DNA from: a virus | DNA: 64,000 bases | Strand: one strand, 5' to 3' | Virus record (IMG/VR): IMGVR_UViG_3300027586_000002 | Coordinates: 42,941 to 106,940 of that record | Shown here: one piece after another, positions 16,703 through 33,595 of the stretch | Layout of the letters: every line of letters begins with the position of its first letter | How positions within the stretch are numbered: the first letter of the stretch is position 1 | Translations under genes and position numbers: made by a program | Notes under the pieces: generated by a model | Database searches by the model: none | The model's input: the letters and a program-made list of their open reading frames with translations, nothing else | Told to the model about the DNA's origin: nothing

Positions 16703-17094
16703 TTAAACACACAACCAAGTTAAACGTTAACCTTCTAGCTATCGTATTGATGCTTAGAAGGTTGTTTTTGTCTATGAACCAGAAACTGGATGCTGAGTAT
16801 AAAGTTACTAAGCTTCCTAGCGAAGTTGTTGAATACTCACAAGGTTAAAAGGCTGAACAGCTGCTCAACCCGGATTGACTAAGCAGCTGTTCACCTACTT
16901 ACTCCCATCCCACTTTTGGTCGCGTGGACCAAAATTACTATTCTCAATATAATAAATAACCCAGGGAGCGTCAAGTGATAAAATATACAGTTTACAATAA
17001 AATATACAACATAATAATCTTTGTTACCAGGTATGAAGACTTGGTATTTGGATTAGTTGGGTATACAGCTTTAAAATTGAAGGACTAATTAGTT

Positions 17095-17868
17095 ATGCCA
17101 AAAACAGAAAAAACGCCGGAAAGAAGAATTGATTTAACCGAAACAGTTAGTCGCCAGACAAATAAAAAATTGGCATTAGTAAGTCACATTCTTATCATTG
17201 ATGAGAGTGGCTCAATGCAGTCTTGTGTAAAGGCAACCATTGAAGGTATTAATACTCAGATAGCTACAATAAAAGAATCTGAAGCCACAGCTAAGATAGA
17301 AAATCTTATAACTTTAGTTGTATTTAATGACCAGCATCAATTTGTAGCCAAGGGAGTTTCACCTGATGATGTGGAAACCTTGACCGCTGAGAAGTATAAG
17401 CCTACAGGCAATACGGCACTGTACGACACGATAGTCTCGGTCATTAAAAGCACAGAAGCAGACATCACCGCTGGCTCTAAAGTATTACTAAGTATTTTTA
17501 CTGATGGGATGAATAACATATGTAAGAAGTATACCGCTTCTGATGCCGCTCGAGAAATAGAACGGGTACAACAAGTTGGATGGACTGTTACCTATGTAGG
17601 TGCAAATCAAGATGTGGGTGATGTCGCTTCGTCTCTTAATATACCATTGGGTAATGCTATGTCCTATACTTCAACCAATGAAGGAGCTACGAGGGCCTTT
17701 GCTGCCTACGCCCGGAGCAGTACATCATATTGTATGGCTATTTCTGCTGACCAGCTAGACCAAACTAGAGGAGTTAGCCGAAGCTTTTTCTCAAAAGAAG
17801 CCAAAGTTAAAGATGTATCAAGTACTACATCACTTCCTGATCTGCTTAAAAAGTCAGCGATCAAATAA
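17095..17868 (+). CDS. von Willebrand factor A domain protein
   Basis: DESGSM MIDAS, P.GNTALYD, TDG..N, YVGAN. Confidence 0.85.
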   Translation: MPKTEKTPERRIDLTETVSRQTNKKLALVSHILIIDESGSMQSCVKATIEGINTQIATIKESEATAKIENLITLVVFNDQHQFVAKGVSPDDVETLTAEKYKPTGNTALYDTIVSVIKSTEADITAGSKVLLSIFTDGMNNICKKYTASDAAREIERVQQVGWTVTYVGANQDVGDVASSLNIPLGNAMSYTSTNEGATRAFAAYARSSTSYCMAISADQLDQTRGVSRSFFSKEAKVKDVSSTTSLPDLLKKSAIK

Positions 17869-17906: not shown

Positions 17907-18125
17907 ATGAATAAAGACGCGATCGTAAATGGATTTGTTAAAAGAGCAGCTGAACGCTGTGATGGTTTTCAGTTTAAACATGAGACCGCTGCCGAAATTA
18001 TAAAGCAAGCTGGCTGGTGGGATAAGATGTCTAACCAAGGCTGTGTTACCAACAAGGTAGACAAGAAATCTAATCGCAAACCTTTCAAGAACAGTTACTA
18101 CGACAGCGCTAACAAGAATCTATAA
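17907..18125 (+). CDS. small protein with the GFxKRA leader
   Basis: MNKDAIVNGFVKRAA matches the leader of the 43.6-55.3 kb array. Confidence 0.65.
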   Translation: MNKDAIVNGFVKRAAERCDGFQFKHETAAEIIKQAGWWDKMSNQGCVTNKVDKKSNRKPFKNSYYDSANKNL

Positions 18126-18165
18126 TTATTGATTGGCTAATATTAATCAAAGGTTATAGTCCAAC

Positions 18166-18258
18166 ATGAAGTATACATTAAATAAACAATCCCGCCGCCC
18201 AGCCAAATGGGCAGGGCTGGGTTTTGATGTATCAGGTAGAAATTCAGCACCTATGTAA
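18166..18258 (+). CDS. putative 30-aa attenuator leader peptide
   Basis: MKYTLNKQSRRPAKWAGLGFDVSGRNSAPM*; ATG 5 nt after a TATAGT -10 box. Confidence 0.5.
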   Translation: MKYTLNKQSRRPAKWAGLGFDVSGRNSAPM

Positions 18259-18285
18259 AGCAGGATTAAATATAACTAAAAATTT

Positions 18286-18315
18286 AACCCTGCTGGAAAC
18301 CTCCAGCGGGGTTTT
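18286..18315 (+). terminator. intrinsic terminator of a candidate attenuator
   Basis: AACCCTGCTGGA-AACC-TCCAGCGGGGTT + T-rich tail; competing strand AGCAGGATT at 18259-18267. Confidence 0.65.
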
Positions 18316-18429
18316 GGATTTTAGGAGGAGCTTAATTTCCTCATACTGCTTTCATTAAATTTAGTTTGAATCAAATAACTTTAATTATATTTATATAGTT
18401 AAAATCAACACATTAATCAAGGTTCAACC

Positions 18430-18502
18430 GCGCCATTAGCTCAGTTGGTAGAGCGTCAGTTTTCCAAACTGATTGTCGTGAGTTCAAATCTCACATGGCG
18501 CT
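18430..18502 (+). tRNA. tRNA-Gly(TCC)
   Basis: Cloverleaf; GCGCCAT/ATGGCGC acceptor; TCAGT-TTTCCAA-ACTGA. Confidence 0.92.
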
Positions 18503-18509
18503 CCCTTTT

Positions 18510-18845
18510 ATGCAATCAATACATGACCTATCAGAAACTCAGTTAGAAGCAATTAATGCCTCATTTGATATTATAATCAATGTGGGTGTTAATAGGCTAC
18601 ATGATCTCAGTCCAAAAATGTCTGAAACAAATCGAGAACAAATGGAAGCTGTTAATGTTGATGTGACCAAAGTTATTACCAAGGTCGAGAAAACACTTTC
18701 GGATGGTGGCAATCTAGGTAAAACTTCAATAGAAGATATTCTAAAGATCATTACCCTGGCTATTACTATTCTTGGAATAGCGCTGGGCGAAAATGATGAT
18801 GACGTTGTAAAACTACGTAAGTTAAACAAAGAAATTAACGGATAA
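18510..18845 (+). CDS. hypothetical protein
   Basis: Start moved out of the tRNA to the next in-frame ATG. Confidence 0.55.
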   Translation: MQSIHDLSETQLEAINASFDIIINVGVNRLHDLSPKMSETNREQMEAVNVDVTKVITKVEKTLSDGGNLGKTSIEDILKIITLAITILGIALGENDDDVVKLRKLNKEING

Positions 18846-18884
18846 CTAGGCGTACCAGTTTGACTCCGCCTGCCCCAACCTTTT

Positions 18885-19175
18885 ATGAATGAAGAACAAC
18901 AAGAAGCATTAGCCTCTGCTATGACACAAGCCCAGGCTGCCATGGAAGTGTTGAGTGCTAGACTAATTCTTATTTCAAAGAAAAAAATGAAAGCTATCGA
19001 CAAAAACTTTCTAATTAGTGGCATTCAAGAAGAAAAAAAGACCCTGCTTGACTCAAAAGTAAAACCATCACAAAAGACAGTGCTAACTCTTATGTACAAA
19101 ATGGCCCTGCTGGCTTTTGGAGCAAAAGACAAAGATGTAATAGCTTTCAAATTGGCGATAGCTAATTTGCCTTAA
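18885..19175 (+). CDS. hypothetical protein
   Basis: Helical 96-aa ORF. Confidence 0.55.
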   Translation: MNEEQQEALASAMTQAQAAMEVLSARLILISKKKMKAIDKNFLISGIQEEKKTLLDSKVKPSQKTVLTLMYKMALLAFGAKDKDVIAFKLAIANLP

Positions 19176-19235
19176 AGTAATAAAAATAATTTGGTTCCTA
19201 TATGCGCTAATTGTCACATAGGTTATTATCATCAC

Positions 19236-19311
19236 GGGGGCTGGGACTGCCTGGCGTGGTCATCTCATTTGCAATGAGAAAGTCAGACCGGTTCAACTCC
19301 GGTAGCCTCCA
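19236..19311 (+). tRNA. tRNA-Ala(TGC)
   Basis: G3:U70 pair; TCTCA-TTTGCAA-TGAGA; atypical D arm. Confidence 0.85.
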
Positions 19312-19332
19312 ATCCTATTTAGAAGCAATTTT

Positions 19333-19560
19333 ATGACAGAAACAACAGAACTGCCGGCGATCGAGTTTGTAATCAAACTCAATAATCCTGAATACAAACG
19401 TGAAGCTGATGAGCTTTACAAGTCTATTCAGGAACTTATATCAAGTGATACTTCAAAGAAAGCCTCCGAGCTAGACCCTAATCTATCTTTCAGAGTAGTG
19501 TTGATTGAACATGATGGTAGTGTGGAAAGCATGGAGCCTGTACGATACATTCAACTCTAA
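19333..19560 (+). CDS. hypothetical protein
   Basis: Ends in RYIQL. Confidence 0.55.
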   Translation: MTETTELPAIEFVIKLNNPEYKREADELYKSIQELISSDTSKKASELDPNLSFRVVLIEHDGSVESMEPVRYIQL

Positions 19561-19640
19561 GTTTAGATTATTGTGCTTGCTGCCTTTAGTTCGACATAAT
19601 TATAAGGCAGCAAGCCGACATATAACAACAAACATTTCAC

Positions 19641-20138
19641 ATGAATATTATAATAAAACCACTAAAAAAGAGACATAAACCAGTATTCAATACAATAAAA
19701 GAACTGCTTAGCTTTAAAGAAACCACAACATTTACAGAAATAGGAAGAATAGCAAAAATTAACAGTCTGGAGGTAATTCAGGTATGTAATAAGAATTCCG
19801 GTATGTTACATAAATATAACAATGGCAGTATAACCGGATTTTCTAGTGCGCCTATTACTGATCTAAAGTTTAAGCTAGGCAAGACATTTAGATCTAATAA
19901 AATAGTTATTTCAAACGATGGGTTAAAAGCGGAGCTATTATTCTCAGGTCATGACGAGTTAAAAGCCACTTATAATTTTTCAACCTCTTTTAAATTGCAC
20001 CAATATGACCCTTGGGCTAAAAAAGTTGTCATACCTGATACTGCAACGATTAGAACAGTTTTATCAGGTCATGGTATACAGGATGAGGTTGAGGTTGTTA
20101 AAGATCTTGATCTAGAACTTTATTGGGACGAAAAATGA
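19641..20138 (+). CDS. hypothetical protein
   Basis: 165-aa ORF. Confidence 0.6.
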   Translation: MNIIIKPLKKRHKPVFNTIKELLSFKETTTFTEIGRIAKINSLEVIQVCNKNSGMLHKYNNGSITGFSSAPITDLKFKLGKTFRSNKIVISNDGLKAELLFSGHDELKATYNFSTSFKLHQYDPWAKKVVIPDTATIRTVLSGHGIQDEVEVVKDLDLELYWDEK

Positions 20139-20179
20139 TAACTACATTACCCAGCCAAAAATAGGATTAAATAAACTAC

Positions 20180-20482
20180 GTGATGAGAGTTAAAATAACA
20201 AAATTTGCAATATCAGACGAAACAGATGCACTTCCTCCTGCAGATAGGGATTCACATATACCAGGGCGGGAACAAGCCGATAACTTAAGCCTTCCTATTG
20301 AGTATTGGATTGAGGGTCAAGCTGAGGAGCTGCCATGTGTAGGTCGCTGGTTTGTAATAAACAGAGAAGTAAGGAATGGTGTTGTCACCCCAGGACTGTT
20401 TACTTCTTCTCCAATCGTCAAGATCAGTGGAGATATTTATGAGACAAGAAACTCTAAATATCGAGTAGAACTTTTAAGTTAA
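20180..20482 (+). CDS. conserved phage hypothetical protein
   Basis: G.F.SS.I.KI...ETRNSKY pattern. Confidence 0.6.
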   Translation: MMRVKITKFAISDETDALPPADRDSHIPGREQADNLSLPIEYWIEGQAEELPCVGRWFVINREVRNGVVTPGLFTSSPIVKISGDIYETRNSKYRVELLS

Positions 20483-20483
20483 T

Positions 20484-20561
20484 GCACCTGTAGCTCAGCC
20501 TGGTTAGAGCAGCGCCCTTTTAAGGCGTTTGTCGCGCGTTCAACTCGCGCCAGGTGCACCA
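20484..20561 (+). tRNA. tRNA-Lys(TTT)
   Basis: Cloverleaf with encoded CCA; GCGCC-CTTTTAA-GGCGT. Confidence 0.92.
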
Positions 20562-20629
20562 CTTTATAAAAATTAATATGATAAAGTGTTAACAACCTTT
20601 CTAATTTAAGTAAACAACAATAACCCATA

Positions 20630-20818
20630 ATGGTTGACCAAAATATAATTCAACAACTCCGTGTGGTACTGCACAAGGCTACAGACATTTCAGTAGTATC
20701 GTCTGTAGAAGGTGACAATTTAAAATATGATATAAAGATAACTATACCTATGGAAGTAAACAACATAGGCGCAGACGTTGGTCTAGTACTAAAGCCAGAG
20801 CGGCGAATTTCGATATGA
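20630..20818 (+). CDS. small hypothetical protein
   Basis: Ends in PERRISI. Confidence 0.5.
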   Translation: MVDQNIIQQLRVVLHKATDISVVSSVEGDNLKYDIKITIPMEVNNIGADVGLVLKPERRISI

Positions 20819-21033
20819 AGACAATCATACATGTTAACCAACATGTTATTAAGAAAAATCAAAAGACTGGCGAAAGAAATCCTGTGTTAACTGTTAAGAC
20901 CTATAAGTCTAATTTTAAAGCTAATATGGTGAAGATCAAAGGTCCTTGTAAAGTTGTCTATAGCCCAAATAAGCCACTTTCATGTGGAGCAAGGGTCTGG
21001 ATAGAGACAATAGGAGAAGTAAAGTTAAATTGA
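20815..21033 (+). CDS. conserved small phage protein
   Basis: IHVNQH..K.N...VYSP.KPLSCGARVWIET. Confidence 0.7.
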   Translation: MKTIIHVNQHVIKKNQKTGERNPVLTVKTYKSNFKANMVKIKGPCKVVYSPNKPLSCGARVWIETIGEVKLN

Positions 21034-21046
21034 AAACTAGTGAACT

Positions 21047-21379
21047 ATGACAAAACAGCTACAACTGAACTTGGTTAAGGGAATCATGCAAAACTACCCC
21101 GAGTCTGGGGCCGGTGCGGTGCTTCAATGCATAGATTGGAAGTACAGCCAGAGCGTCTATGAATTTGAGGACGGCGATGAGGGCAAGTTGTACACCTTGA
21201 CGGAAATGGAGCTTCTGGCCGCAGTGCCGATCATGTTCATGAATTGGCCGAAAGGTTGTACGCCGCTGCCTGTGACTTTTACCGAGGAGAGCGTCGAAGA
21301 GTGGTGTTGTCAGGCGGACGCTAACGACCACGATGCGTTCGTTCAAATCGCGGTCTTTGGGGAGGTTATTTATGGCTGA
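21047..21379 (+). CDS. hypothetical phage protein
   Basis: C-terminal D...D..VQ.AVFGEVIYG pattern; GC-richer DNA. Confidence 0.65.
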   Translation: MTKQLQLNLVKGIMQNYPESGAGAVLQCIDWKYSQSVYEFEDGDEGKLYTLTEMELLAAVPIMFMNWPKGCTPLPVTFTEESVEEWCCQADANDHDAFVQIAVFGEVIYG

Positions 21380-21408
21380 ATTTCGTGAACTAACTATTTA
21401 ATCATAAC

Positions 21409-21900
21409 ATGAGGATAATAGGAAAACATCAGAATAAGAAGAAACCTTTAGCTAAGTTTGCCGATAAAAAAGGGCAACCATTGGTCGTCTTATGTCAAAT
21501 GGTTTCCGTGGACCAGAAGGAAAGGAGAAGCTTCAAGACTTTTGTAGATACCAAGCTGTCCGGGGATTACGCTAAAGGTGGAAAAGCATATGCGAAATTG
21601 AAGAATAGGCCAACCAATGACATTTTTGGGGAAAAGACAAAGCTCCAGAAGTTTGTGAAGATGCATTTTGATTTCACGAAGTTTAGTGATACAGATTGGG
21701 AAAACTACTGGCTTCTGACTCAGCACTGTGATTTCAATAGACAGTTCCAGAAGGCAGCTCTGAAGGTAATAACAAAGTTCAGACCTGACTCAGACGAGAT
21801 GAAGTTTCTCACCGACAGGATCTCCTGTAGCTTGAGTGGAACACAGAAATTCGGCACGCAAAACATCTGCGAAAAAGATGATGTAGATGTAACTAGATAA
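21409..21900 (+). CDS. DUF6624-like protein
   Basis: WLL.QH.D...FQ..AL...L.DR.......Q.FGTQ. Confidence 0.55.
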   Translation: MRIIGKHQNKKKPLAKFADKKGQPLVVLCQMVSVDQKERRSFKTFVDTKLSGDYAKGGKAYAKLKNRPTNDIFGEKTKLQKFVKMHFDFTKFSDTDWENYWLLTQHCDFNRQFQKAALKVITKFRPDSDEMKFLTDRISCSLSGTQKFGTQNICEKDDVDVTR

Positions 21901-21902
21901 AT

Positions 21903-22436
21903 ATGAACATCTTTTACTTAGAGCACGATGTCAAAAACTGTGCAAAGATGCACGTAGATAAACATTGTGTAAAAATGATATTGGAATATGCACAATTGTT
22001 GAGCACGGCTCACAGAGTACTTGACGGTATTCCATTAGTTGGAGTTAGCCAAACTGGCAGGAAACAAACTCAGTATGTTCTTCCTGATAATCGGGAATCT
22101 GACTTGTATTCTGCAACACATATCAACCATCCTTCCGGTGTGTGGGTGAGACAAAGTTGTGCTAACTATGATTGGTTATTCAAAATGTTTGTTGCTCTAA
22201 TGGATGAGTACACATATCGCTACGGTAAAGTTCACGCTACCAGCAGATTGACAGAACATTTGAGGTCCAGGCCAAAAAATATACCGGACGGTTCTTTTAC
22301 TGAACCCACACCCGCCATGCCCGAACAATACAAAGTATTCGGTGATTCAATCAAATCGTATAGAAATTATTATTTAGGTGATAAAAGACGGATGTTTTCT
22401 TGGAAACTCCGGGAAGTTCCGCCTTGGTGCCTCTAG
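21903..22436 (+). CDS. pyrimidine-dimer DNA glycosylase (DenV-like) family protein
   Basis: MNIFYL...HVDKH.VKMILEYAQLLSTAH, THINHPS..W, EYTYRYGKVH. Confidence 0.75.
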   Translation: MNIFYLEHDVKNCAKMHVDKHCVKMILEYAQLLSTAHRVLDGIPLVGVSQTGRKQTQYVLPDNRESDLYSATHINHPSGVWVRQSCANYDWLFKMFVALMDEYTYRYGKVHATSRLTEHLRSRPKNIPDGSFTEPTPAMPEQYKVFGDSIKSYRNYYLGDKRRMFSWKLREVPPWCL

Positions 22437-22542
22437 GAAGTTAGGTTATATCTGCGTAATAGGAAATATGGGAGTAGAATATATAATAATTTCTAGTGTG
22501 GTAGATAAGCTTTAAATAATGGAAGGAGTATAGTGTATACCT

Positions 22543-23529
22543 ATGGAAGAAGAAATTGCTTTAAGCTATGACGATGTGTTGCTGATACCAAAGTATTCAG
22601 AACTAGAAAGTAGAGCCAAGGCCATCACTGAAGTCGGTCTGTGTGGTTCTAAGTTTAAACTACCAATTGTGCCCGCTAATATGAAGTCGGTCATTGATAT
22701 AAAGACAGCCAAGTGGTTGTCACAGAATGGGTACTTTTATATATATCACAGATACGATAAGACTAATTTTGAGTTTGTTAAGAATGCAATAGCTGAGAAA
22801 TGGGAGCTTATAAGCATCAGTACTGGGGTTAACGAAGACAGTGAGATAGACCTTAGGCTTATTGCTAACGCTGATGAAAACTTATATGTTGATTTCATAA
22901 CAATAGATGTGGCTCACGGGCACCATCTAAAGGTTAAGAATCGAATAAAGCTCATCAAGGAGCTGTTCCCTGAAACAAAGGTCATAGCGGGCAACGTAGC
23001 AACACCAGAGGCCATCAGGGACTTAGCCGCGTGGGGAGCGGATGCGGTGAAAGTGGGCATTGGACAAGGGTCTATTTGTACAACAAGGTTTCAAACAGGA
23101 TTTAGTGTTCCTATGTTTACCTGTGTTGCTTCATGTTGTGACGACTTTTTTATCGAAAATAGTCATGATATAATTCAACAGACAATCATACCTATAATTG
23201 CTGACGGTGGAGTCAAGTATATAGGAGATATTGCTAAAGCTCTTGCCGCTGGTGCTACTATGGTAATGTCTGGGGCTTTGTTTGCCAATTGTATAGATTC
23301 GCCCGCAGAAATAATAAACGGCAAGAAACAATACTTTGGCTCAACCTCATTTGAGGCCAAGAAAGAAAACAAACATATTGAAGGCCGTCTCTTACAAATA
23401 GAGACTGGCTGTACAATAGAACAACGACTCATTGAAATACAGCAGGCACTACAAAGCTCAATTAGCTATGCTGGTGGAATAGACCTGACTTGTTTTAGAG
23501 ACGTTGGGCATGTAATTATAAACAAGTAA
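22543..23529 (+). CDS. guaC: GMP reductase
   Basis: [46 protein letters not shown]. Confidence 0.9.
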
Positions 23530-23535
23530 GTTAAT

Positions 23536-23597
23536 GGCACTCCTATGAGTTAGGGACGGATAATAGCCCGTTGATGAGTTCGAATCTGTCAGTGCCT
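23536..23597 (+). pseudogene. degenerate tRNA-like sequence
   Basis: GGCACT/AGTGCC ends and a GTTCGAATC T-loop, but only about 62 nt with abnormal D and anticodon arms. Confidence 0.35.
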
Positions 23598-23607
23598 CTT
23601 TTACAAT

Positions 23608-24012
23608 ATGATAATAGAATGTGGAGGACACAAATGGTACCCAACTAAAGGAGTCATTAAGTATAATCTAGATGGCTCTGTATTTGTCCACGCCGATAAC
23701 TCTATTGTCGAGTATTATCAAGCCGTGGTAAAGATGCACCTACACCTGAAGTTAAACCCCCCGTTTAGTGGGGCACACATTACTGTTGTTTCTTCTAAGT
23801 GGGAGAATTCCGTAAAACACTCATCATACTGGAAAAAACGTGAAAGTGAAGAAATCATCTTCTATTACACTTCAACTATTTTCAGATCTCAGAGCTATTT
23901 TTGGTTAACTGTTCATTCACATGACATGATCAATCTTAGGACTGAGCTTGGGCTTGGAGAGAGGTATCATCCTTTACATTTAACAATAGGTAATATAAGA
24001 TTTTCAAAATAA
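23608..24012 (+). CDS. 2H phosphoesterase family protein
   Basis: Two HxT motifs (AHITVV, LHLTIG). Confidence 0.7.
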   Translation: MIIECGGHKWYPTKGVIKYNLDGSVFVHADNSIVEYYQAVVKMHLHLKLNPPFSGAHITVVSSKWENSVKHSSYWKKRESEEIIFYYTSTIFRSQSYFWLTVHSHDMINLRTELGLGERYHPLHLTIGNIRFSK

Positions 24013-24043
24013 CTATGAAAATTGAAAAGATAATTTAAATAAT

Positions 24044-24463
24044 ATGTCGTTTATAAGACCAACAAGTAGCCCTGACGGGCTTTACATATACCACAGCATT
24101 GAAAACACCGTGTCGGTGCATGCTAGGGATGTATATGTAAAAGGCAAAAAGAAGAAGTCAGAATTTCCTGACATAAAGTATAAACAGTTCTTGAAGCTGT
24201 GCCAGAAGTGTAAGAAGGCTAATAGCTATCTAAGAACGCCGATTACTGTGGGGGAATTATCTCTTGAAGCAGTGGAGATAAATAAGCGTGACATGCCTGG
24301 CTTCGGCAAGTATGGTGTTGATACACAGATGTACATGTGTGACCATCGTATAAAGCTAAGCAATGGAACACATAGCATACTAATGTATTGTGTTACCTGG
24401 GCCTACATCATGAATAATGTTTTAAGTTCTGAAGATTTTTACAGAGAAAAGAAGAAAAAATAA
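24044..24463 (+). CDS. hypothetical protein
   Basis: 139-aa ORF. Confidence 0.6.
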   Translation: MSFIRPTSSPDGLYIYHSIENTVSVHARDVYVKGKKKKSEFPDIKYKQFLKLCQKCKKANSYLRTPITVGELSLEAVEINKRDMPGFGKYGVDTQMYMCDHRIKLSNGTHSILMYCVTWAYIMNNVLSSEDFYREKKKK

Positions 24464-24468
24464 TTTAA

Positions 24469-24553
24469 CGGAATGTAGACCGTAACTTGGTACCGGGTAC
24501 GATTTGGGGTCGTATGCTTAACCGCCGTGCAGGTTCAAATCCTGTCATTCCGA
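24469..24553 (+). tRNA. tRNA-Pro(TGG) with long variable region
   Basis: CGGAATG/CATTCCG acceptor; TACGA-TTTGGGG-TCGTA; 14-nt variable region. Confidence 0.85.
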
Positions 24554-24561
24554 AATTTATG

Positions 24562-24590
24562 TTGACTTAACCGATAAAATTTCATAGCGT
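24562..24590 (+). promoter_or_regulatory. sigma70-like promoter
   Basis: TTGACT-N17-TAGCGT, 7 nt before the ATG at 24598. Confidence 0.45.
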
Positions 24591-24597
24591 AACAGCT

Positions 24598-26016
24598 ATG
24601 AATAAAAAATTATCGGTTAAACAACTAGATCAAATATTAAGTAGCAGTAAGACAGAGTATACAGCCAACGTTAAAGCCGCTAATTTTCTGGCTGATCTGT
24701 GTAAAAAGTACAATGCTCACGATAATGGCAAATCTCGTGAAGTATTAAGACTGTATCTAAGTAAGTATAAGCTAGATACTTCTCATTGGTACAATCGACC
24801 AAGCAAGTATACAAATGTAGAAAAGATTTGTCCTGTATGCGAAACTAAGTTTACAACACAGCTTAATCACAAAAACGAGAAGACTGTATGCTCTGTAGGA
24901 TGCGCAAACACTTATTTCCCTAGACATACTGAAGAAAGTCGCAAGAAGATAAGTGACGCGCTATTACATAATGCTGCTGTGCTTGGGAGAAAAGCTGAGC
25001 ATGTAATATTATGTAAAGAATGTGGTAATCCTAAGATAACAAAGCGAAAGCATCAAGCATTTTGCTCTGTTATTTGTTCTAAATCATATAGAGAAAGAGA
25101 CCCGGTTTATAGACAAAAACTTAGAGATATACAACTAAAGAGGATCAAAGATGGAACCCATACTGGATGGAGATCTAGGAATAAACCATCTTATCCTGAA
25201 ACCTTCTTTATGAAGGTTCTAGATAATAACAAGATTCCTTATGAATTTGAGAAACCGGTAGGCAAGTATTTTATAGATTTTGCTATTAATGATAAACAAA
25301 TAGCTTTGGAGATTGACGGTAAACAACATCTATTACCAGATAGAGTTATTAAAGATAAGGAAAAAGATAAATATTTAACTGAACAAGGATGGTTGATGCA
25401 TAGAATTCCTTGGACAAATATATCCTGTGATAAAGGTAAAGTTTATATTAGAAATGAAATAAATAAGTTTGTAGCCCTATATAACAACAGTAGTAATAAA
25501 TTTAACATGACCACAAATACAACAATAACGGAATTAACAAAACAAGAGTTGGTAGCATTAATGTCAGAAGTGAAGGAACAGGTGCAGTCGCTGTCAGGAA
25601 AGCTAGATAAGAATGTAGCTATTACTGAGTCGATGGAGCAACAGCTGAAGCAAATCTTTAATTCAAATAGAAGAGAAGCTGCTCCTGCCCACCTGATGGA
25701 GCTGCTTAAGGCTTCTGACACGCTAAAGCCTAAGTTAGCAGTTGATCAAAAGACAGGTATTGGAATGACCAAGCCGTATTTTGTACAATTAATATCCAAA
25801 GACGGGCGCCTCGTCCTCGGAGCATCTCACGGCAAGCACGGTATTGAAGCAAAATTCTTCGAGGGTCGTGAAGGAGCTGAAGAATATTACGCTGGATTAC
25901 CAAATAAAAATTGGATCAAACATGCAGTTGAAAAGCTAGGCTTTACTAAGAGCTTTGTTAAGCTAAGCAATAAGCAGCAATTGAAATACCCCACTAAGAT
26001 CGTAAATAAGAAATAA
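24598..26016 (+). CDS. zinc-finger + DUF559/Vsr-like PD-(D/E)XK endonuclease fused to an unrelated C-terminal domain
   Basis: CxxC/CSxxC repeats; YFIDFA...ALEIDGKQH...D..KD..L...GW...RI.W. Confidence 0.7.
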   Translation: MNKKLSVKQLDQILSSSKTEYTANVKAANFLADLCKKYNAHDNGKSREVLRLYLSKYKLDTSHWYNRPSKYTNVEKICPVCETKFTTQLNHKNEKTVCSVGCANTYFPRHTEESRKKISDALLHNAAVLGRKAEHVILCKECGNPKITKRKHQAFCSVICSKSYRERDPVYRQKLRDIQLKRIKDGTHTGWRSRNKPSYPETFFMKVLDNNKIPYEFEKPVGKYFIDFAINDKQIALEIDGKQHLLPDRVIKDKEKDKYLTEQGWLMHRIPWTNISCDKGKVYIRNEINKFVALYNNSSNKFNMTTNTTITELTKQELVALMSEVKEQVQSLSGKLDKNVAITESMEQQLKQIFNSNRREAAPAHLMELLKASDTLKPKLAVDQKTGIGMTKPYFVQLISKDGRLVLGASHGKHGIEAKFFEGREGAEEYYAGLPNKNWIKHAVEKLGFTKSFVKLSNKQQLKYPTKIVNKK

Positions 26017-26025
26017 CATATTAAT

Positions 26026-26265
26026 ATGTTTGCTGATGAATGTAATCTAGACGGCGACAAGAACGCTCCTGGTCACGGAGAACAATGCTGCTGTAATTGC
26101 AGGTCATTAAAAATAGATCATTCTCATCCACTGTCAGATGGTAAGCCTTGTACTAACCTACGAGGCTTCATCTGCACAGCTGATGGAGAACAAGCTTATT
26201 CAGGCTGGAGGCCACACGGTCTATGCGAATTGTGGTACCCTCGTGTTGAGGCCAAAGTTTCTTAA
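26026..26265 (+). CDS. small Cys-rich protein
   Basis: CCCNC...C...C...HGLCE. Confidence 0.6.
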   Translation: MFADECNLDGDKNAPGHGEQCCCNCRSLKIDHSHPLSDGKPCTNLRGFICTADGEQAYSGWRPHGLCELWYPRVEAKVS

Positions 26266-26294
26266 TTCGCAGAATTTTCCAAAAATAAAATAAT

Positions 26295-26380
26295 TCCAAG
26301 GTAGGAGAATTGGTAAACCCAGAAGACTGTTAATCTTCCGTCGTAAGACATTGCTTGTTCAAATCAAGCCCTTGGAGCCA
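26295..26380 (+). tRNA. tRNA-Asn(GTT) with long variable arm
   Basis: TCCAAGG/CCTTGGA acceptor + GCCA; GAAGA-CTGTTAA-TCTTC; GTC-GTAA-GAC variable hairpin. Confidence 0.88.
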
Positions 26381-26401
26381 CTTCCAATCAATTAATTAAT
26401 T

Positions 26402-26944
26402 ATGCCTACTCATTGGTTTACTGCAGATCACCACGCCGGCCATGCAAAAATAATAGAATATTGCCGACGCCCATTCCGTGATACCCACGAGATGGACGAA
26501 ACGATGATAAACAATCATAACTCTGTTGTTCAGCCAGGCGACTTTGTTTATATACTTGGAGATGTTGCTTTTAAGAATCCTGCTAACTATATACGCAGGC
26601 TCAATGGGCACAAGTTCATTATTAGAGGTAACCATGATAAGCATATAGAAGAGTGCAAAAGCCTGGTTGGTTGGATAAGAGACTTCCAACAGATAACAGT
26701 TGAAGGACAAAAGATAGTCCTAATGCATTATGCCATGCGTGTTTGGCCAAGTTCCCATCACGGCGCTTATCAGCTTTATGGGCATAGTCACGGCACATTG
26801 GAAGATGATCCTAACGCCCTGTCTATTGATGTAGGAGTAGATTGTCACAACTTCTTTCCTATATCGTTTAAACAGGTACAAGCTAAGATGGCTAATAAAA
26901 ACTTTAAGCCAGTAGACCACCACAACGCTGAAACTAATGATTGA
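26402..26944 (+). CDS. calcineurin-like metallophosphoesterase
   Basis: D.H.GH, LGD, GNHD, HY, GHSHG, DVGVD. Confidence 0.88.
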   Translation: MPTHWFTADHHAGHAKIIEYCRRPFRDTHEMDETMINNHNSVVQPGDFVYILGDVAFKNPANYIRRLNGHKFIIRGNHDKHIEECKSLVGWIRDFQQITVEGQKIVLMHYAMRVWPSSHHGAYQLYGHSHGTLEDDPNALSIDVGVDCHNFFPISFKQVQAKMANKNFKPVDHHNAETND

Positions 26945-27116
26945 AGACGCACTTAAACAGCAATTAAAGTTGATTGAGGCAACAAACGCCTGGCTTAAAG
27001 ATGAAACCAATAAGTACATTACTTCTCCTGTAAAGGATAAGAACAAACTTGTGGAGCTTCAATCCAGGCATAGGCAGTTAATAAAAGATATAGACAGGTT
27101 AATAGAACAAGATTAA
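26937..27116 (+). CDS. small helical protein (59 aa, not in ORF track)
   Basis: MIEDALKQQLKLIE...IEQD*; overlaps the upstream stop. Confidence 0.5.
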   Translation: MIEDALKQQLKLIEATNAWLKDETNKYITSPVKDKNKLVELQSRHRQLIKDIDRLIEQD

Positions 27117-27135
27117 TAATACGTTAATAGTTAAT

Positions 27136-27212
27136 GCTCCTGTAACTCAATTGGCTAGAGTGCAGAGTTTCTACCTCTGAAGTTGTAGGTTCAAATCCTA
27201 CCAGGAGCACCA
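27136..27212 (+). tRNA. tRNA-Arg(TCT)
   Basis: Cloverleaf with CCA; CAGAG-TTTCTAC-CTCTG. Confidence 0.9.
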
Positions 27213-27220
27213 AATTTAAT

Positions 27221-27586
27221 ATGGACAATATAAAACTAAATAAGTTAAAAGCCAAGGCAATGAAAGCCGGTAAGTTCTTGGATCGTATCCCAGAGGAACA
27301 GACAGAAGCAGTATTTGCTACAGCTCTAAAGTATCGTCCTAAGAATTTAATGGATAAGATCAATCTATTCCATAAAGAGGTAGGAGACACCCAATATTAT
27401 GAAATGTTAGGGACTGCGTGGTTTTTGGAGTTTCTTGATATCTGGGATGACGAGCAACGTCAGGTTAACACAGTCGCCTTTGTGGAGGAGCTCTATAAGT
27501 TCATCCCTGAAGGCGAAAGTGTTACTCAAGATGACGTTTCTGCCTGGGTTCAATTACAGAAAATGGCAGAAGAAGAAAACGATTAA
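27221..27586 (+). CDS. hypothetical protein
   Basis: 121-aa ORF. Confidence 0.6.
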   Translation: MDNIKLNKLKAKAMKAGKFLDRIPEEQTEAVFATALKYRPKNLMDKINLFHKEVGDTQYYEMLGTAWFLEFLDIWDDEQRQVNTVAFVEELYKFIPEGESVTQDDVSAWVQLQKMAEEEND

Positions 27587-27625
27587 GTTTTACAGCAATA
27601 AGATTGGACTGTACTTTATCAAATT

Positions 27626-28333
27626 ATGTCAAAAACTTTAATTATAAGCGATATACACCACAGATGGCAAAAAGCTGAAAAGCTTATATTAAAAGAGAAG
27701 CCAGATAAAACCATATTTTTAGGTGACTACTTTGATGATTTTGATGACTCTTGTCTTGAAGCAAGGCAGACTGCCCAATGGCTAAAGACTAGTCTTACAT
27801 TTAAGAATAGAATACATCTTAGAGGTAATCATGACACACATTATGAAAGCCAAAATACAAGGCTTCAATGCTCTGGTTATGAGTTGAAGAAAGATATAGT
27901 TATAAACGAGGTAATGAAAGCTAAGGATTGGCGCAAGCTTTATTGGTTTCATTATGAGAATGGGTGGTTATTTACTCATGCTGGGGCCCACCTTTTATAT
28001 GTAGGGCCGCAAGTTAATCGTATTGAAATATACATGGCCGAAGAAGCTAAAAAAGCTAACCGTGTATATTTTGAGTCAAAAGGAAGTCACTGGTTCTGGC
28101 ACATCGGGGCTTCAAGGTATGGCTGGGACGGCATAGGAGGTATTACCTGGTGTGATGCCAACCGTGAATTTGATGCTGTTCCAGGGCAGAAACAAATCTT
28201 TGGACATACTCCTCAGCAAGTAACCAATGTTGATGAGCTATGGCTTGATGAGAACAACCTATGCCTTGATACTCATTCCAATCATTATGCTTTGATGGAT
28301 GAGCATGGAAATATAAATGTTAAAAAAGTTTAG
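27626..28333 (+). CDS. calcineurin-like metallophosphoesterase
   Basis: SDIH, GDYFD, GNHD, THAG, GHTP. Confidence 0.88.
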   Translation: MSKTLIISDIHHRWQKAEKLILKEKPDKTIFLGDYFDDFDDSCLEARQTAQWLKTSLTFKNRIHLRGNHDTHYESQNTRLQCSGYELKKDIVINEVMKAKDWRKLYWFHYENGWLFTHAGAHLLYVGPQVNRIEIYMAEEAKKANRVYFESKGSHWFWHIGASRYGWDGIGGITWCDANREFDAVPGQKQIFGHTPQQVTNVDELWLDENNLCLDTHSNHYALMDEHGNINVKKV

Positions 28334-28339
28334 TAAAAT

Positions 28340-28423
28340 GGACGGGGTCCGGCTGGTCGAGGAAGCAGTCTTGAAAACTGTTGGGGTTAATAGCCCTCTA
28401 GGGTTCGAGTCCCTACCCGTCCG
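28340..28423 (+). tRNA. tRNA-Ser(TGA)
   Basis: GGACGGG/CCCGTCC acceptor, long variable arm, G73. Confidence 0.9.
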
Positions 28424-28432
28424 ATCACTTTT

Positions 28433-28675
28433 ATGTATCCAGAACAACGCCCATGGCAAGTCAGACATTTGTTTAAAGCATTACGTGTATTAGTTACAAC
28501 TGAAACTAATCGTTGTTTCTTTAAAGAGGAGTTCAAACAAATTGATTATTGCTCAATACACGTAGCTATAAAGAACGGTAATTTAATAGAAGCCATAAAG
28601 ATATACAGATCCTATAATAATTGTAGTCTGGTAGAGGCTAGAGATTTTATATTTATGTTGGCAGGTAAGCCATAA
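28433..28675 (+). CDS. protein with ribosomal L7/L12 C-terminal-like motif
   Basis: IEAIKIYR....SLVEARDFI. Confidence 0.5.
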   Translation: MYPEQRPWQVRHLFKALRVLVTTETNRCFFKEEFKQIDYCSIHVAIKNGNLIEAIKIYRSYNNCSLVEARDFIFMLAGKP

Positions 28676-28702
28676 TATTTTTAGACCAGAAAATCCAAAA
28701 TT

Positions 28703-29134
28703 ATGCGTAAAATAAAATTTAGAGTTTGGGACGAGAAATACAATCAATGGGATACTTCACCTATCACCTTTTATTCTAATGAATTAGCGGTTAAGCAAGG
28801 TAGAGTTATTCAGCAGTTCACCGGACTTAAAGATAAGAATGGTAAAGAAATTTACGACGGTGATATTGTTTCCTTCAATTATACGGTTGGAGACTTCGCG
28901 TGGGAAGCTATGGACAATGATGAGCGGGAGGTAAACAAAGAGATGATGGGCAAACTATACGTTTGCGTAGTCGTTTGGTGCGAATGGAATTGTGGATTTA
29001 TGATGGCGGACGGGAGCCTTGAATCTACCCATATTCAATTTCCTATGCTCTACGCTAAGACCGGGAAAGTTATCGGTAATATATTTGAGAATCCAGACTT
29101 ATTAGTACCTATTTTTTATCACGAGGTGGTGTAA
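28703..29134 (+). CDS. YopX family protein
   Basis: IKFRVWD, QFTGLKDKNGKEIY.GDI, VIGNIFENPDLL. Confidence 0.88.
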   Translation: MRKIKFRVWDEKYNQWDTSPITFYSNELAVKQGRVIQQFTGLKDKNGKEIYDGDIVSFNYTVGDFAWEAMDNDEREVNKEMMGKLYVCVVVWCEWNCGFMMADGSLESTHIQFPMLYAKTGKVIGNIFENPDLLVPIFYHEVV

Positions 29135-29201
29135 CGGTAGCACGAAGGCCGGCAAGCCTGCTTGCCGGCTTTTGTTTTGGTTCAATTCCAGACCTACGTG
29201 T
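29120..29201 (+). ncRNA. tRNA-like RNA with a 12-bp stem in place of the anticodon arm
   Basis: Gln-type D arm TGGTGTAACGGTAGCAC, T arm TTTGG-TTCAATT-CCAGA, AAGGCCGGCAAG-CCTG-CTTGCCGGCTTT. Confidence 0.6.
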
Positions 29202-29255
29202 TATAACTGTAACTTAAATATTGGTCAGCCATTCATTTTGTTGTATGATAACCTT

Positions 29256-29417
29256 ATGACAACATTTGAATGGTTACATCGTGAAGCTGAGAAGGCCCTT
29301 GTCAAGCGCGCCAATGCAACCACAGTTCAGGAATGTCAGGAATTAAACAGCTGGCTTAATGAACTAAGAGGCAGGCTAAACAGCCATATTCGGGAAACCA
29401 GGAAACAAAGAAAATAA
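29256..29417 (+). CDS. small hypothetical protein
   Basis: Start moved to MTTFEW, outside the tRNA-like element. Confidence 0.5.
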   Translation: MTTFEWLHREAEKALVKRANATTVQECQELNSWLNELRGRLNSHIRETRKQRK

Positions 29418-29564
29418 CTCTTACCAAAGGCAAAGATGCAGGTAATATAGTAGAAGTTAAACACGCACCTTTCGTGTTAGCTAATGATATACCTAACTTC
29501 GTAAAAAATAATGAATGCTTGCTGGGATTAATTCCGAAGTATTCCAAAAGATTAAGTTTCAAAC

Positions 29565-29638
29565 GTCGCCTTCGTATATTGGTAATACTTCTGGTTTTCA
29601 TCCAGAAAAAAGCAGTTCGATTCTGCTAGGCGATACCA
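29565..29638 (+). tRNA. tRNA-Glu(TTC)
   Basis: Cloverleaf with CCA; TCTGG-TTTTCAT-CCAGA. Confidence 0.88.
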
Positions 29639-29680
29639 ATACATAAATAGACAGGCAGTTTATCTGCCTCAATACGTAAT

Positions 29681-30364
29681 ATGCCATATCCAATATTAGA
29701 TCAAACATTTAAAAATCTAACCATACACGAGTATAACACAGCTAAAGAAGAGCTGGTTAAATACCAACCAAAGACAATAGAGTCAAAGTATAACCGGGTA
29801 ATGTTTGCCCAGTTATCGATAAAACAAAATTGTACCAATAATGTCAGAAGTTATCGTCATTTGAAGAAAACATTTGAGGCTACTTTCAAAGATGAAGAGT
29901 CCGTAAAGGCTGCGGTAAAAGCATCCAAGGCAGGGTTGATCAAAGTAAGGTCCAAGGGACTCTGGGTTTCAAACAAAAAGCACAATGAAGACAATTTGTT
30001 TTATACAAAGAGAGAAGGAGAAACCTGGCGTGAGTGCAGGTCAAGATGGCGTGGGCAGATATACGGCATAGGACTTGCCAAGATATCTTTTACATTGGAG
30101 CTGATGTACCCACTAGATGCAAAACTTGTATGCCTAGACACACATTTATTAACCCAATTTGGACATAATAAAGATAGGCTCAATCCTATTGAGTATCAAA
30201 CTTATGAGGATTACTTCCTTGCTAAATGTGAAGAAATGAAGCTTACGCCTACAGCAGCGAGAGAAGCAATATGGAGAAAACTTGCTGGTGAGAACAAAGA
30301 GAACGAACCATCATGGCTTACAAGATCTTTTGAAGACGAATTAACTGTGCCCGCGGTAGCTTAA
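29681..30364 (+). CDS. helix-hairpin-helix DNA glycosylase-like protein (Ogg-type)
   Basis: IYGIGLAKISF HhH with Lys, then CLDTH. Confidence 0.6.
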   Translation: MPYPILDQTFKNLTIHEYNTAKEELVKYQPKTIESKYNRVMFAQLSIKQNCTNNVRSYRHLKKTFEATFKDEESVKAAVKASKAGLIKVRSKGLWVSNKKHNEDNLFYTKREGETWRECRSRWRGQIYGIGLAKISFTLELMYPLDAKLVCLDTHLLTQFGHNKDRLNPIEYQTYEDYFLAKCEEMKLTPTAAREAIWRKLAGENKENEPSWLTRSFEDELTVPAVA

Positions 30365-30433
30365 CTGGCTACAGTAATAGCCTACAAAACTATAGCATAA
30401 TGGAGGCAACTCCATTATGCTGCACTAAAAATT

Positions 30434-30898
30434 ATGGACAGAGCAGACCTACAAGAAATAATCGATTGGCCAACTGTGCTTAAACAAGATAGATGCGCAG
30501 GAGGGCATAGAGCAGTTATGAGTAATATATTTAGTGAAACTGATGCTAAGGTTATAGCTTGGTACCAAGATGACCTATATGAAGGGGAATTGGCTATTGC
30601 TTATCAGTTTTATAAAGACGGAACAATATGTTTGATTACTGATTTTTTTGGGTCTTGCTCCGGCTGTGATGCTTGGGAGGGCGTAGGCGATAAAGAAGCT
30701 GAAGATCAGATACACACCCTGGTTGCTAATTCCAGGGTGTTTAAATGTGTAAGAGACAGCATAGCCTTCCTTAATAATGACATAGACAATAAACCAGAGA
30801 ACTTTGGTTTTAGAATTGCAACGAATCTAACAGACACATTGGAAAATATTGACGATATTACTTTTGATGAGCCAGAAGGCAGGAAGATTAGTTTATAG
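30434..30898 (+). CDS. hypothetical phage protein
   Basis: Y.G...FGSCSGCD.W motif; ends in RKISL. Confidence 0.65.
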   Translation: MDRADLQEIIDWPTVLKQDRCAGGHRAVMSNIFSETDAKVIAWYQDDLYEGELAIAYQFYKDGTICLITDFFGSCSGCDAWEGVGDKEAEDQIHTLVANSRVFKCVRDSIAFLNNDIDNKPENFGFRIATNLTDTLENIDDITFDEPEGRKISL

Positions 30899-30972
30899 GC
30901 GAGTGGCGCAGCGGTTAGCGCAGATGCTTTACACGCATTTGGTCGGGGGTTCGAGTCCCTCCTCGCCTACCA
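30897..30972 (+). tRNA. tRNA-Val(TAC)
   Basis: Cloverleaf with CCA; GATGC-TTTACAC-GCATT. Confidence 0.92.
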
Positions 30973-30979
30973 TTTTTAT

Positions 30980-31026
30980 GACCCCCGGGTAGTTACTACG
31001 TATGGCTAAAACGGTATAATATATTG
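30980..31026 (+). promoter_or_regulatory. cassette left end
   Basis: GACCCCCGGGTAG...TGGCTAAAACGGTATAATA. Confidence 0.6.
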
Positions 31027-31074
31027 ATAGACCAATGTGCCTGTTGCCCATTGGCTGTCCGTTCCTACCTAACT

Positions 31075-31491
31075 ATGAAAGATACAAGAAAAAGAAACAA
31101 AGCAACTTACCAAGCCATGAAAAAAGTAGCTTTGCTATTTGTGAGTGCGAAGCCGATTGCTGAAGTATTAGACATCTTCAGTGATCATCAAGCAGATGGC
31201 ATGATCCAAATCGAGCACGACCCAGCTCGTATTGTCGGGCAGCGATTTGATCTCGTCTTGTTCGGGAAATCCGCGCCAGCCAGAGGTTGGTTCACCGGCA
31301 CCAGGATGGCTGGGTTTGTCCCCAGTCGGACTGTGACAGTCATACCAAAAATCTGCAGTGTCTTGGACGCCGTAGTAGCCATACACTTAATGCTCTGCAA
31401 TCCTGAGATTAAGGGACACGAGTTAACTAAGCTTTGGCCAACGGGTCCTGGCTCCCGCAAAGCTCGAGCCAGGCTCATACCCTGGGATTAG
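31075..31491 (+). CDS. hypothetical protein (cassette cargo)
   Basis: GC-richer ORF between promoter box and end motif; start chosen at the first ATG. Confidence 0.55.
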   Translation: MKDTRKRNKATYQAMKKVALLFVSAKPIAEVLDIFSDHQADGMIQIEHDPARIVGQRFDLVLFGKSAPARGWFTGTRMAGFVPSRTVTVIPKICSVLDAVVAIHLMLCNPEIKGHELTKLWPTGPGSRKARARLIPWD

Positions 31492-31505
31492 TAGGAAGTT
31501 GTAGT

Positions 31506-31549
31506 AAAGGAAAAGCAGGTGTTACGCCTGCTTTTCCTTTAACTATTAG
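31506..31549 (+). terminator. cassette right end: hairpin + TTTAACTATTAG
   Basis: AAAGGAAAAGCAGG/CCTGCTTTTCCTTT stem. Confidence 0.65.
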
Positions 31550-32222
31550 CTTTGAGCTTGATATCAATTATCTTTTTAATCTTTGCATAGTGTTTAACGG
31601 CTTCAGCTTCATTAAACCTGCCCATGGCTCTAGTATCAACAGAATGTACATCAATACCAAACTCAGCACATTTATTGATCTTGCGACGGTCGTTGCGCTG
31701 TACGGCCCTTAGCTGCTTATCCCCATAGATAGGGTCGTAGTGTACAGGCCCATTGATTTCAATGCCCATATCTAATGATGGTATGAATATATCTAACTCT
31801 GATCGTTTTAGAAGAGTACGGTCATTATAGTGTATAGTGAGGTTTGGGTAGTCTAGGTTAAGCCTAGCTTCAGTCCATACTTCAAACTGTGAACGTGTCA
31901 TGCCCTTCTTTCCATGAGCAGCATTATAACGATTTGCACAAGCAGAGCAGCAGAAGCCCACTCTGGTTCTGGCAATCTCTACTCTGCGTCTTTTAAATAA
32001 GGCATTACACTGTCTACAGTTATAATCTTGCGCTGTGTTATCAAACTTAACTTTACAGTTGCCGGAACAAAATTCTACAGTTATAAGCTCCTTAGCTTCA
32101 ACAGCCTTCATGTACTCATGCTTTTCTCTATGAAAGGCCTTGGCACACTGAACACATTGAAATCTGAGATCGTCAAGATGAGTGGCTTCCTTGAATTCTT
32201 TATCCTTAAACAACTTAATCAT
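31539..32222 (-). CDS. zinc-finger + PD-(D/E)XK endonuclease (homing-endonuclease-like)
   Basis: CxxC/CSxxC repeats; ELDIFIP...GIEINGPVHY...D..K. Confidence 0.7.
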   Translation of the reverse strand: MIKLFKDKEFKEATHLDDLRFQCVQCAKAFHREKHEYMKAVEAKELITVEFCSGNCKVKFDNTAQDYNCRQCNALFKRRRVEIARTRVGFCCSACANRYNAAHGKKGMTRSQFEVWTEARLNLDYPNLTIHYNDRTLLKRSELDIFIPSLDMGIEINGPVHYDPIYGDKQLRAVQRNDRRKINKCAEFGIDVHSVDTRAMGRFNEAEAVKHYAKIKKIIDIKLKANS

Positions 32223-32269
32223 TTAGTCATACTACGCTTATGCAATCTTTTTTGGAATCAAAATAAAGC

Positions 32270-32719
32270 ATGAAAGAAATCACCGGGGATATCTGGGAAA
32301 TAAGAAAAACCACAGGCAGCTGGGTGTGCGTGCCAACCAACGCCATAGTTAATTCTAGTGGATTAGCGGTAATGGGAGCAGGCGTTGCGTTACAAGCAGC
32401 GGAGAAATTTAAACATCTTCCAAAAACACTAGGTCAGAAACTTAGTAAACATGGTAACAGAGTCTACGCTTTCATGGACGATCAGATATTCACATTCCCA
32501 ACCAAACAAAATTGGAGAAGTGAGTCTGAATTAGATTTGATTGCTGGTAGCGCCATGCAGTTAAGAGAGCTGTTAGACGCAATATCAAGCGCCAGCCTTA
32601 ATGGTAAGATACTGCTCCCAAGGGTTGGTTGTGGTAACGGTAATTTAAGCTGGGACAAACAGGTAAAGCCTATTGTTTCAGCTATACTTGACGATAGATT
32701 TTTAGTAGTAACCTTATAA
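32270..32719 (+). CDS. macro domain protein (ADP-ribose binding or hydrolase)
   Basis: GDIW, VPTN, MGAGVA, FPTK..W, PRVGCGNG.L.W. Confidence 0.82.
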   Translation: MKEITGDIWEIRKTTGSWVCVPTNAIVNSSGLAVMGAGVALQAAEKFKHLPKTLGQKLSKHGNRVYAFMDDQIFTFPTKQNWRSESELDLIAGSAMQLRELLDAISSASLNGKILLPRVGCGNGNLSWDKQVKPIVSAILDDRFLVVTL

Positions 32720-32748
32720 ACAACTTTAGTTATGGCAAAAAAGACGTG

Positions 32749-32777
32749 TTGACAATCGCCTGATAATCCATTAAGTT
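32749..32777 (+). promoter_or_regulatory. sigma70-like promoter
   Basis: TTGACA-N17-TAAGTT. Confidence 0.5.
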
Positions 32778-33509: not shown

Positions 33510-33522
33510 ATATTTTTGGTTC

Positions 33523-33595
33523 GCCTGTGTAGCTCAGTTGGCAGAGCGCGACTTTTGTAAAGTCGATGTCGGGGGTTCGAGCCCCTCCACAGGCT
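33523..33595 (+). tRNA. tRNA-Thr(TGT)
   Basis: Cloverleaf; CGACT-TTTGTAA-AGTCG. Confidence 0.92.

Follow-up and report, generated by a model that had tools for sequence, protein, structure and literature searches.

How does a phage that carries a long array of tRNA genes set the moment and the amount of their expression? The question is raised by a locus in the window, by which we mean the whole 64,000-nucleotide stretch analyzed here (positions 42,941 to 106,940 of the virus record IMGVR_UViG_3300027586_000002, a 106,940-bp IMG/VR record that is about 52% complete), where a tRNA cluster is preceded by a promoter, a very short open reading frame (ORF) and a terminator. The initial annotation had suggested that ribosome-dependent attenuation gates this cluster, with a possible ribosome stall at Arg-Arg-Pro codons; the layout is real, unique in the contig and recurs before five arrays of other phages, but the stall did not hold up. 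The anatomy of the stretch, its recurrence and the accompanying statistics lead us to consider it somewhat probable that it is a ribosome-mediated (leader-peptide) transcription attenuator heading a phage tRNA/ORF array, whose dynamics we infer.

All elements of the unit lie on the plus strand. A sigma70-like promoter can be read directly at 18133–18160 (−35 TTGGCT at 18133–18138, a 16-nt spacer and −10 TATAGT at 18155–18160). By a simple hexamer count it is an ordinary 9/12; on a weighted matrix, with weights taken from general background on sigma70 promoters, it scores 10.2 and ranks among the best 0.024% of positions in the contig. Transcription is predicted to start at, or 1–2 nt from, the A of the ATG at 18166, which opens a leaderless 30-codon ORF (18166–18258, TAA at 18256–18258) directly 3′ of the promoter and 5′ of the tRNA genes. 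Shine-Dalgarno motifs are absent from most genes of this phage. Every gene caller missed this ORF; its codon usage (0.21 bits per codon) is at the level of real genes and exceeds that of 97% of spurious small ORFs. The stop codon abuts AGCAGGATT (18259–18267), and 27 nt past the stop, between the leader ORF and the tRNA genes, begins a terminator with its U-tract (18286–18324). Its stem (18286–18313; arms 18286–18297 and 18302–18313) has 12 pairs, seven of them G-C and one G-U, closed by the 4-nt loop AACC (−20.9 kcal/mol) and followed by the tail TTTTGGATTTT, the GC-rich hairpin with a direct U-run that defines an intrinsic (Rho-independent) terminator. Within 10 kb, where 13 sites resemble terminators, it ranks first, and a 160-nt region here folds with z = −3.96. 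The −10 hexamer, the 30-codon ORF, the post-stop segment, the 12-pair terminator and the tRNA downstream, all listed in the initial annotation, were thus found where it had placed them.

The terminator stem is separated by 116 nt from tRNA-Gly(TCC) (18430–18504), the first of 15 tRNAs that are interleaved with ORFs up to 36014, with gaps of 3–40 nt. An AT-rich spacer with weak promoter-like hexamers (18365–18399) lies in this interval and holds the word AATCAAATAACT at 18369–18380. A promoter of tRNA-Gly's own downstream of the hairpin had been named by the initial annotation as the case against gating; none scores above chance in the terminator-to-tRNA-Gly interval here (best 3.8, weighted matrix with the same background weights), but the related phage G005, described below, does have a strong one. 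No strong plus-strand terminator was found between 18.4 and 29 kb. Along 18505–36030, many ORFs begin 5–21 nt past a tRNA 3′ end, often at (T)TTTATG, and ORF stops often fall 3–30 nt before the next tRNA. With such close spacing, the mRNAs released by RNase P/Z processing would be nearly leaderless, an arrangement of 'tRNA punctuation'.

Inside the leader ORF lies a further hairpin (18173–18232) with a GC-rich core at 18190–18222 (−17.7 kcal/mol), followed by TTTTGATGT. It resembles a terminator itself, and the two terminator-like hairpins, 91 nt apart, both carry GGGTTTTG. A counterpart covers leader nucleotides 2–72 in G005 (−23.1 versus −24.1 kcal/mol in this phage), that of G005 being without a U-tract. 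From its sequence, the hairpin may act like a terminator, or it may be one that causes a pause or sequesters the 5′ end. The Arg-Arg-Pro codons form the 5′ arm of this GC-rich stem and are not conserved, so we rejected them as a stall site.

Two alternative structures compete for the RNA behind the leader stop. An antiterminator hairpin (18259–18294; arms 18259–18271 and 18282–18294) has 13-nt arms, 12 pairs and one A-C mismatch (−11.1 kcal/mol); its 5′ arm begins at the first base past the stop, and its 3′ arm overlaps the 5′ arm of the terminator by 9 nt, leaving three apical terminator pairs free. The pairing of the post-stop segment with the terminator arm that the initial annotation had described, at 8 of 9 positions, is therefore real but was drawn too short. 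The antiterminator and the terminator are mutually exclusive. The pairing gain between upstream sequence and the terminator arm is −10.8 kcal/mol (P = 0.008); of 60-mers that were shuffled or drawn at random from genomic upstream sequence, 0.8% gain as much, and the value ranks 5th among the 55 terminator-like hairpins of the contig. When both conformers were folded, as had been suggested, prefix folds always formed the antiterminator with the stop region free and never with a ribosome footprint at the stop, and the terminator beat the antiterminator at equilibrium. The computed barrier to refolding into the terminator, 2.5 kcal/mol in this phage, is lower than those of the E. coli leaders treated alike (6.3 for trp, 4.8 for thr and 8.8 for leu); in G005 it is 9.5 kcal/mol. 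There is no anti-antiterminator (1:2) structure: without a ribosome the antiterminator forms, and the 5′ hairpin leaves segment 2 unsequestered, so untranslated transcripts would read through.

The following course of events would fit this anatomy. When the leader is decoded fast, the ribosome at the stop codon would cover the antiterminator arm, the terminator would form and transcription would end. With slow decoding, or in the absence of a following ribosome, the antiterminator would form first and RNA polymerase would continue into the tRNA genes. Slow decoding could stem from scarce tRNAs for the A/U-ending codons that phage tRNAs serve, AGA above all, and the build-up of phage tRNAs would then quicken leader decoding and shut the gate, a negative feedback on tRNA supply. 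The ORF-internal hairpin may make the polymerase pause; alternatively, it may bury the 5′ end, in which case no ribosome after the first, coupled one would matter.

The codons of the leader bear on this proposal. We compared their spread over the phage tRNAs with three null models (windows taken from real genes, spurious ORFs and random sequence free of stops). To decode the leader of this phage, 12 of its 15 tRNAs come into use, where a mean of about 8 is expected (P = 0.012–0.024), and those of the G005 leader call on 27/33 phage tRNAs, with about 20 expected on average (P about 0.002); codon usage in the G005 leader is non-genic. The window leader has no run of codons for one amino acid. 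It does contain GGT AGA AAT (Gly-Arg-Asn; 18235–18243), with AGA six codons before the stop, and the same GGN AGA AAT stands 4–6 codons 5′ of the stop in three leaders, those of this phage, G016 and G017. The motif is absent from the G005, G019 and G020 leaders. The AGA of Gly-Arg-Asn is a candidate control codon, read by a tRNA-Arg(TCT) that this phage encodes (27136–27212). The leader peptides of G016 and G017 are related (z = 5.1), and the window peptide has a weak, consistent similarity to both (P = 0.019 for G016 and 0.041 for G017).

From the evidence within the window alone, before relatives were compared, an ordinary operon-end terminator had seemed the likelier reading. Relatives were found through the portal protein and an array-internal phosphoesterase, G005 having been met first through a match to the VWA neighbour of the leader. 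The same unit stands 5′ of tRNA arrays in five further records (G005, G016, G017, G019 and G020), in the order of sigma70-like promoter, ORF of 28–44 codons, gap of 19–31 nt, intrinsic terminator and array, with no well-scoring promoter in G019. The leader ORF is leaderless or nearly so in four of the six units, and the gap between stop and terminator stays within 19–31 nt in all six. Since five other large phages share this layout, the unit probably acts as a switch that senses translation and sets the production of phage tRNAs.

G005 (182,660 bp) has a DNA polymerase 55–63% identical and a portal 67% identical to those of this phage, and about 55 ORFs match. Its leader promoter (TTGACA, 17 nt, TAATCT) is in the top 0.006% of positions and lies 5′ of a 34-tRNA array on the array strand; 9 nt past the −10 hexamer, an ATG opens a near-leaderless ORF of 44 codons. 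The antiterminator of G005 spans the stop, with its 5′ arm 4–11 nt before it and a gain of −10.1 kcal/mol (P = 0.02 against shuffles and 0.0065 against genomic 60-mers), and its terminator has 8 pairs followed by TTTTTTGTT. This leader and that of the window defy alignment and encode unrelated peptides; just two short words are common to both, in the same order. One is GCGGGGTTTT, which in each phage comprises the terminator 3′ arm plus tail. The other, AATCAAATAACT (12 nt), recurs identically in the −35 region of a second, strong promoter of G005 (TTGCAA, 16 nt, TG-CATAAT), situated between its terminator and its array.

In the remaining four records (G016, locus L402; G017, L404; G019, L405; G020, L408), the unit heads an array or a sub-array. 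Their ORFs have 28–35 codons, leaderless or near-leaderless in G016 and G017, and the promoters of G016, G017 and G020 are strong (scores 14–15), G019 being the record without a well-scoring one. In G016, G017 and G020 the first tRNA follows the terminator stem by 9–24 nt, an interval too short for another promoter, so the hairpin would gate the array there. The alternative pairing yields P values of 0.008 in this phage, 0.032 in G005, 0.12 in G016, 0.34 in G017, 0.003 in G019 and 0.002 in G020; it is enriched over the five replicates as a set (G005, G016, G017, G019 and G020; Fisher P = 5e-5) and individually not significant in G016 and G017. The upstream arm in G019 and G020 lies 17–30 nt before the stop, outside the footprint of a stop-bound ribosome. 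Ribosome-footprint geometry fits this phage, with its barrier of only 2.5 kcal/mol, and G005, fits G016 in part and does not fit G019 or G020.

To these observations we added a uniform rule, whose criteria were chosen after the window had been seen and whose promoter weights were those from general background. It asks for a terminator-like hairpin whose pairing with upstream sequence gains at least 8 kcal/mol (−8 or lower), an ORF of 20–80 codons whose stop-bound footprint covers the upstream arm, and a promoter scoring at least 8 in leaderless position. Exactly one site in this contig and one in G005 satisfy it, and these are the two leaders; among 204 other phage loci (2.88 Mb) there are zero matches, with 1064 hairpins reduced stepwise to 102 with alternative pairing, 11 with a suitable ORF and 0 with a promoter.

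More distant relatives, with portals 52–60% identical, have promoter-driven tRNA clusters that resemble the window in that the first tRNA lies 3.5–6 kb from the portal gene and is divergent from it. Unlike the window, they carry 3–7 tRNAs with the promoter directly upstream (9–50 nt) and no leader ORF. In 14 of 28 loci examined, an extended −10 promoter, TTGGTATAAT, lies just 5′ of the first tRNA, which is usually tRNA-Met. Loci with TTGGTATAAT include L278, L279, L281, L286, L289–L292, L300, L305, L308 and L273, and a terminator hairpin overlaps the tRNA promoter in L264, L268 and L275.

DNA comparison with GenBank phages gave tRNA matches only, and with the VWA neighbour as anchor, searches of phages, IMG/VR, JGI metagenomes and GTDB genomes gave relatives of at most 41% identity and no synteny. 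Relatives at 96%, 54% and 40% identity are present in Logan/ENA, the near ones only there. Exact-word scans of IMG/VR with the terminator and with tRNA-Gly found nothing. The leader peptide has no true homologue among 1.8 billion protein representatives, the five matches being long repetitive proteins; an overlapping 44-aa frame likewise has no homologue, and when the leader peptides were compared with GenBank phages by tblastn, all matches were at chance level. Across 14000–40000, only tRNAs reach the gathering score of an Rfam family, and no leader or cis-regulatory family does; the leader models for Trp, Leu and rnk reach 15–23 bits in G005, below their cut-offs of 41–55. A promoter or processing motif in common with other tRNA flanks was looked for and not found, and a search of repeats for a phage-wide promoter motif placed none near 18133–18160.

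The strongest competing explanation, which we regard as unlikely, is an independent small transcription unit with a constitutive, leaky terminator that does not sense translation. Its short, abundant early transcript would be a small-protein mRNA, or an RNA with a stabilising 3′ hairpin after an RNase P cut at the tRNA, and the tRNA array would be fed by a fixed fraction of read-through or by a promoter of its own. The strong promoter past the terminator of G005 suits this idea, as do the low refolding barrier in the window and a stop-to-terminator distance of 19–31 nt that resembles ordinary gene ends in the contig (4–25 nt). A functional peptide could also lie behind the Gly-Arg-Asn motif and the similarity of G016 to G017, whereas the peptides of the window and G005 are unrelated while the layout is kept, and no called-protein homologue appeared among the 1.8 billion representatives. 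A second unit of promoter (TTGACA, 17 nt, TAAGTT), small hydrophobic ORF and terminator at 32749–33110, just before an ORF and tRNA-Thr, is a further point in favor of an independent unit. Against it stand the enrichment of alternative pairing across the replicates and the unusual tRNA spread of the leader codons in two genomes, on which the attenuator reading draws.

A terminator that is regulated by something besides decoding speed appears improbable. Such a terminator might respond to TnaC- or SecM-like nascent-peptide arrest at Gly-Arg-Asn, for which the conservation of a peptide motif 4–6 residues from the C-terminus would speak; the motif is missing in G005, G019 and G020, however, and AGA can also be understood as a control codon that the phage tRNA-Arg(TCT) reads. 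It might instead respond to a hypothetical protein or RNA factor acting on the leader or on AATCAA repeats. AATCAA/TTGATT hexamers reach their highest density in the 107-kb contig at 18116–18420, where 300 nt hold 5 of them and the mean is 0.38; a TTGATT-N10-AATCAA palindrome overlaps the leader promoter, and just 5′ of tRNA-Gly lie two direct copies separated by 12 nt. This cluster may be a regulator binding site.

That the stretch is simply a pair of ordinary tandem terminators ending the upstream VWA and 72-aa unit, with promoter, ORF and alternative hairpin thrown up by chance in an AT-rich spacer with GC-rich stems, is very improbable: two similar hairpins sharing GGGTTTTG, an upstream unit with promoter-like sites of its own (16925–16953 and 17170–17198) and a terminator before it (about 16727–16765), the natural lack of stop codons in GC-rich stems and the 80 ORFs of at least 25 codons in 7 kb would agree with it, whereas five other records have the combination in the corresponding place and the 2.88 Mb background has it nowhere, GGN AGA AAT is conserved and the promoter ranks in the top 0.024% of positions (matrix weights from general background).

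Returning to the leader-peptide attenuator, the closest parallels are the E. coli trp, his, leu, thr, ilv and pheST attenuators, which like the window have a short promoter-proximal ORF and an intrinsic terminator before the regulated genes. In these systems too, the antiterminator shares a strand with the terminator, the stop stands where a ribosome terminating on it would mask the antiterminator, and the energies in the amino-acid operons are similar (antiterminator about −11, terminator about −21 kcal/mol). The window differs in its targets, which are phage tRNA genes with interleaved ORFs, and in its codons, a mixture served by phage tRNAs plus one conserved AGA rather than a run for a single residue. 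It is also leaderless, with no Shine-Dalgarno sequence, no 1:2 anti-antiterminator and no Rfam leader match. Precedent for leaderless attenuator peptides comes from Deinococcus deserti, where leaderless leader peptides were predicted before amino-acid genes and genes of aminoacyl-tRNA synthetases; these short ORFs have their AUG at the transcription start, were proposed to control attenuation and are missed by gene finders (PMC4007540). The D. deserti leaders precede host genes and are rich in one residue (PMC4007540), whereas the element in the window belongs to a phage, precedes tRNA genes and has mixed codons. The U-run hairpin inside the leader ORF (here 18190–18222) recalls the pyrBI and pyrE attenuators, in which coupled translation suppresses a terminator within the leader ORF, and a closely following ribosome would melt it. 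Unlike in pyrBI and pyrE, the main terminator lies past the stop, at the 27 nt given above, with no evident U-rich pause region or nucleotide-sensing logic.

Tentatively, the six units can be seen as a family of leaderless leader-peptide attenuators in large phages with tRNA arrays, in which a leader of phage-tRNA codons, with control by AGA, would gauge decoding speed and autoregulate tRNA transcription. Our search of the literature in full text turned up no attenuator described ahead of tRNA genes, and if the proposal is true, the autoregulating tRNA-array attenuator would, as far as is known, be the first to act on tRNA genes themselves. Classical attenuation would then extend from amino-acid operons to tRNA genes, and the placement of arrays behind a strong promoter followed by an immediate terminator would be explained. 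Working as proposed, the unit would be a compact device that senses translational capacity and feeds the result back on the supply of tRNAs in a closed loop. The recurring layout also provides a search rule for such leaders in other phage genomes.

Several minor features accompany the locus. The 72-aa ORF upstream of the leader (17907–18125) has an N-terminal M-N-x-x-A-I-x-x-G-F-x-K-R-A leader. Past the terminator U-tract, the strong Shine-Dalgarno-like AGGAGGAG occurs at 18322–18329 without a start codon behind it, and 18326–18339 is able to pair with 18239–18252. In G020, two further tRNA sub-clusters (L406, about 1850–2075, and L407, about 1760–2090) share the strong promoter TTGACA, 17 nt, TATTAT and have leaders of 200–300 nt with a mini-ORF around GGGGAGAAC and a terminator abutting the tRNA; the alternative-pairing gain in L407 is −15.2 kcal/mol. 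A tRNA-like sequence of about 95 nt in G019 (L405, 2029–2125), absent from the Rfam tRNA matches, begins 14 nt past the terminator, with the acceptor GGTCTGG...CCAGACC and the T loop GGTTCGAGTCC. The intergenic stretch 23530–23607 of the window holds a tRNA-like T arm, GAGTTCGAATC, which neither ARAGORN nor Rfam calls. Farther downstream, a terminator-like hairpin followed by TTTTTTTAGCTATCAG is repeated at 43066–43110, 58731–58775, 59317–59361 and 63900–63918, with two of the copies identical over 43 nt.
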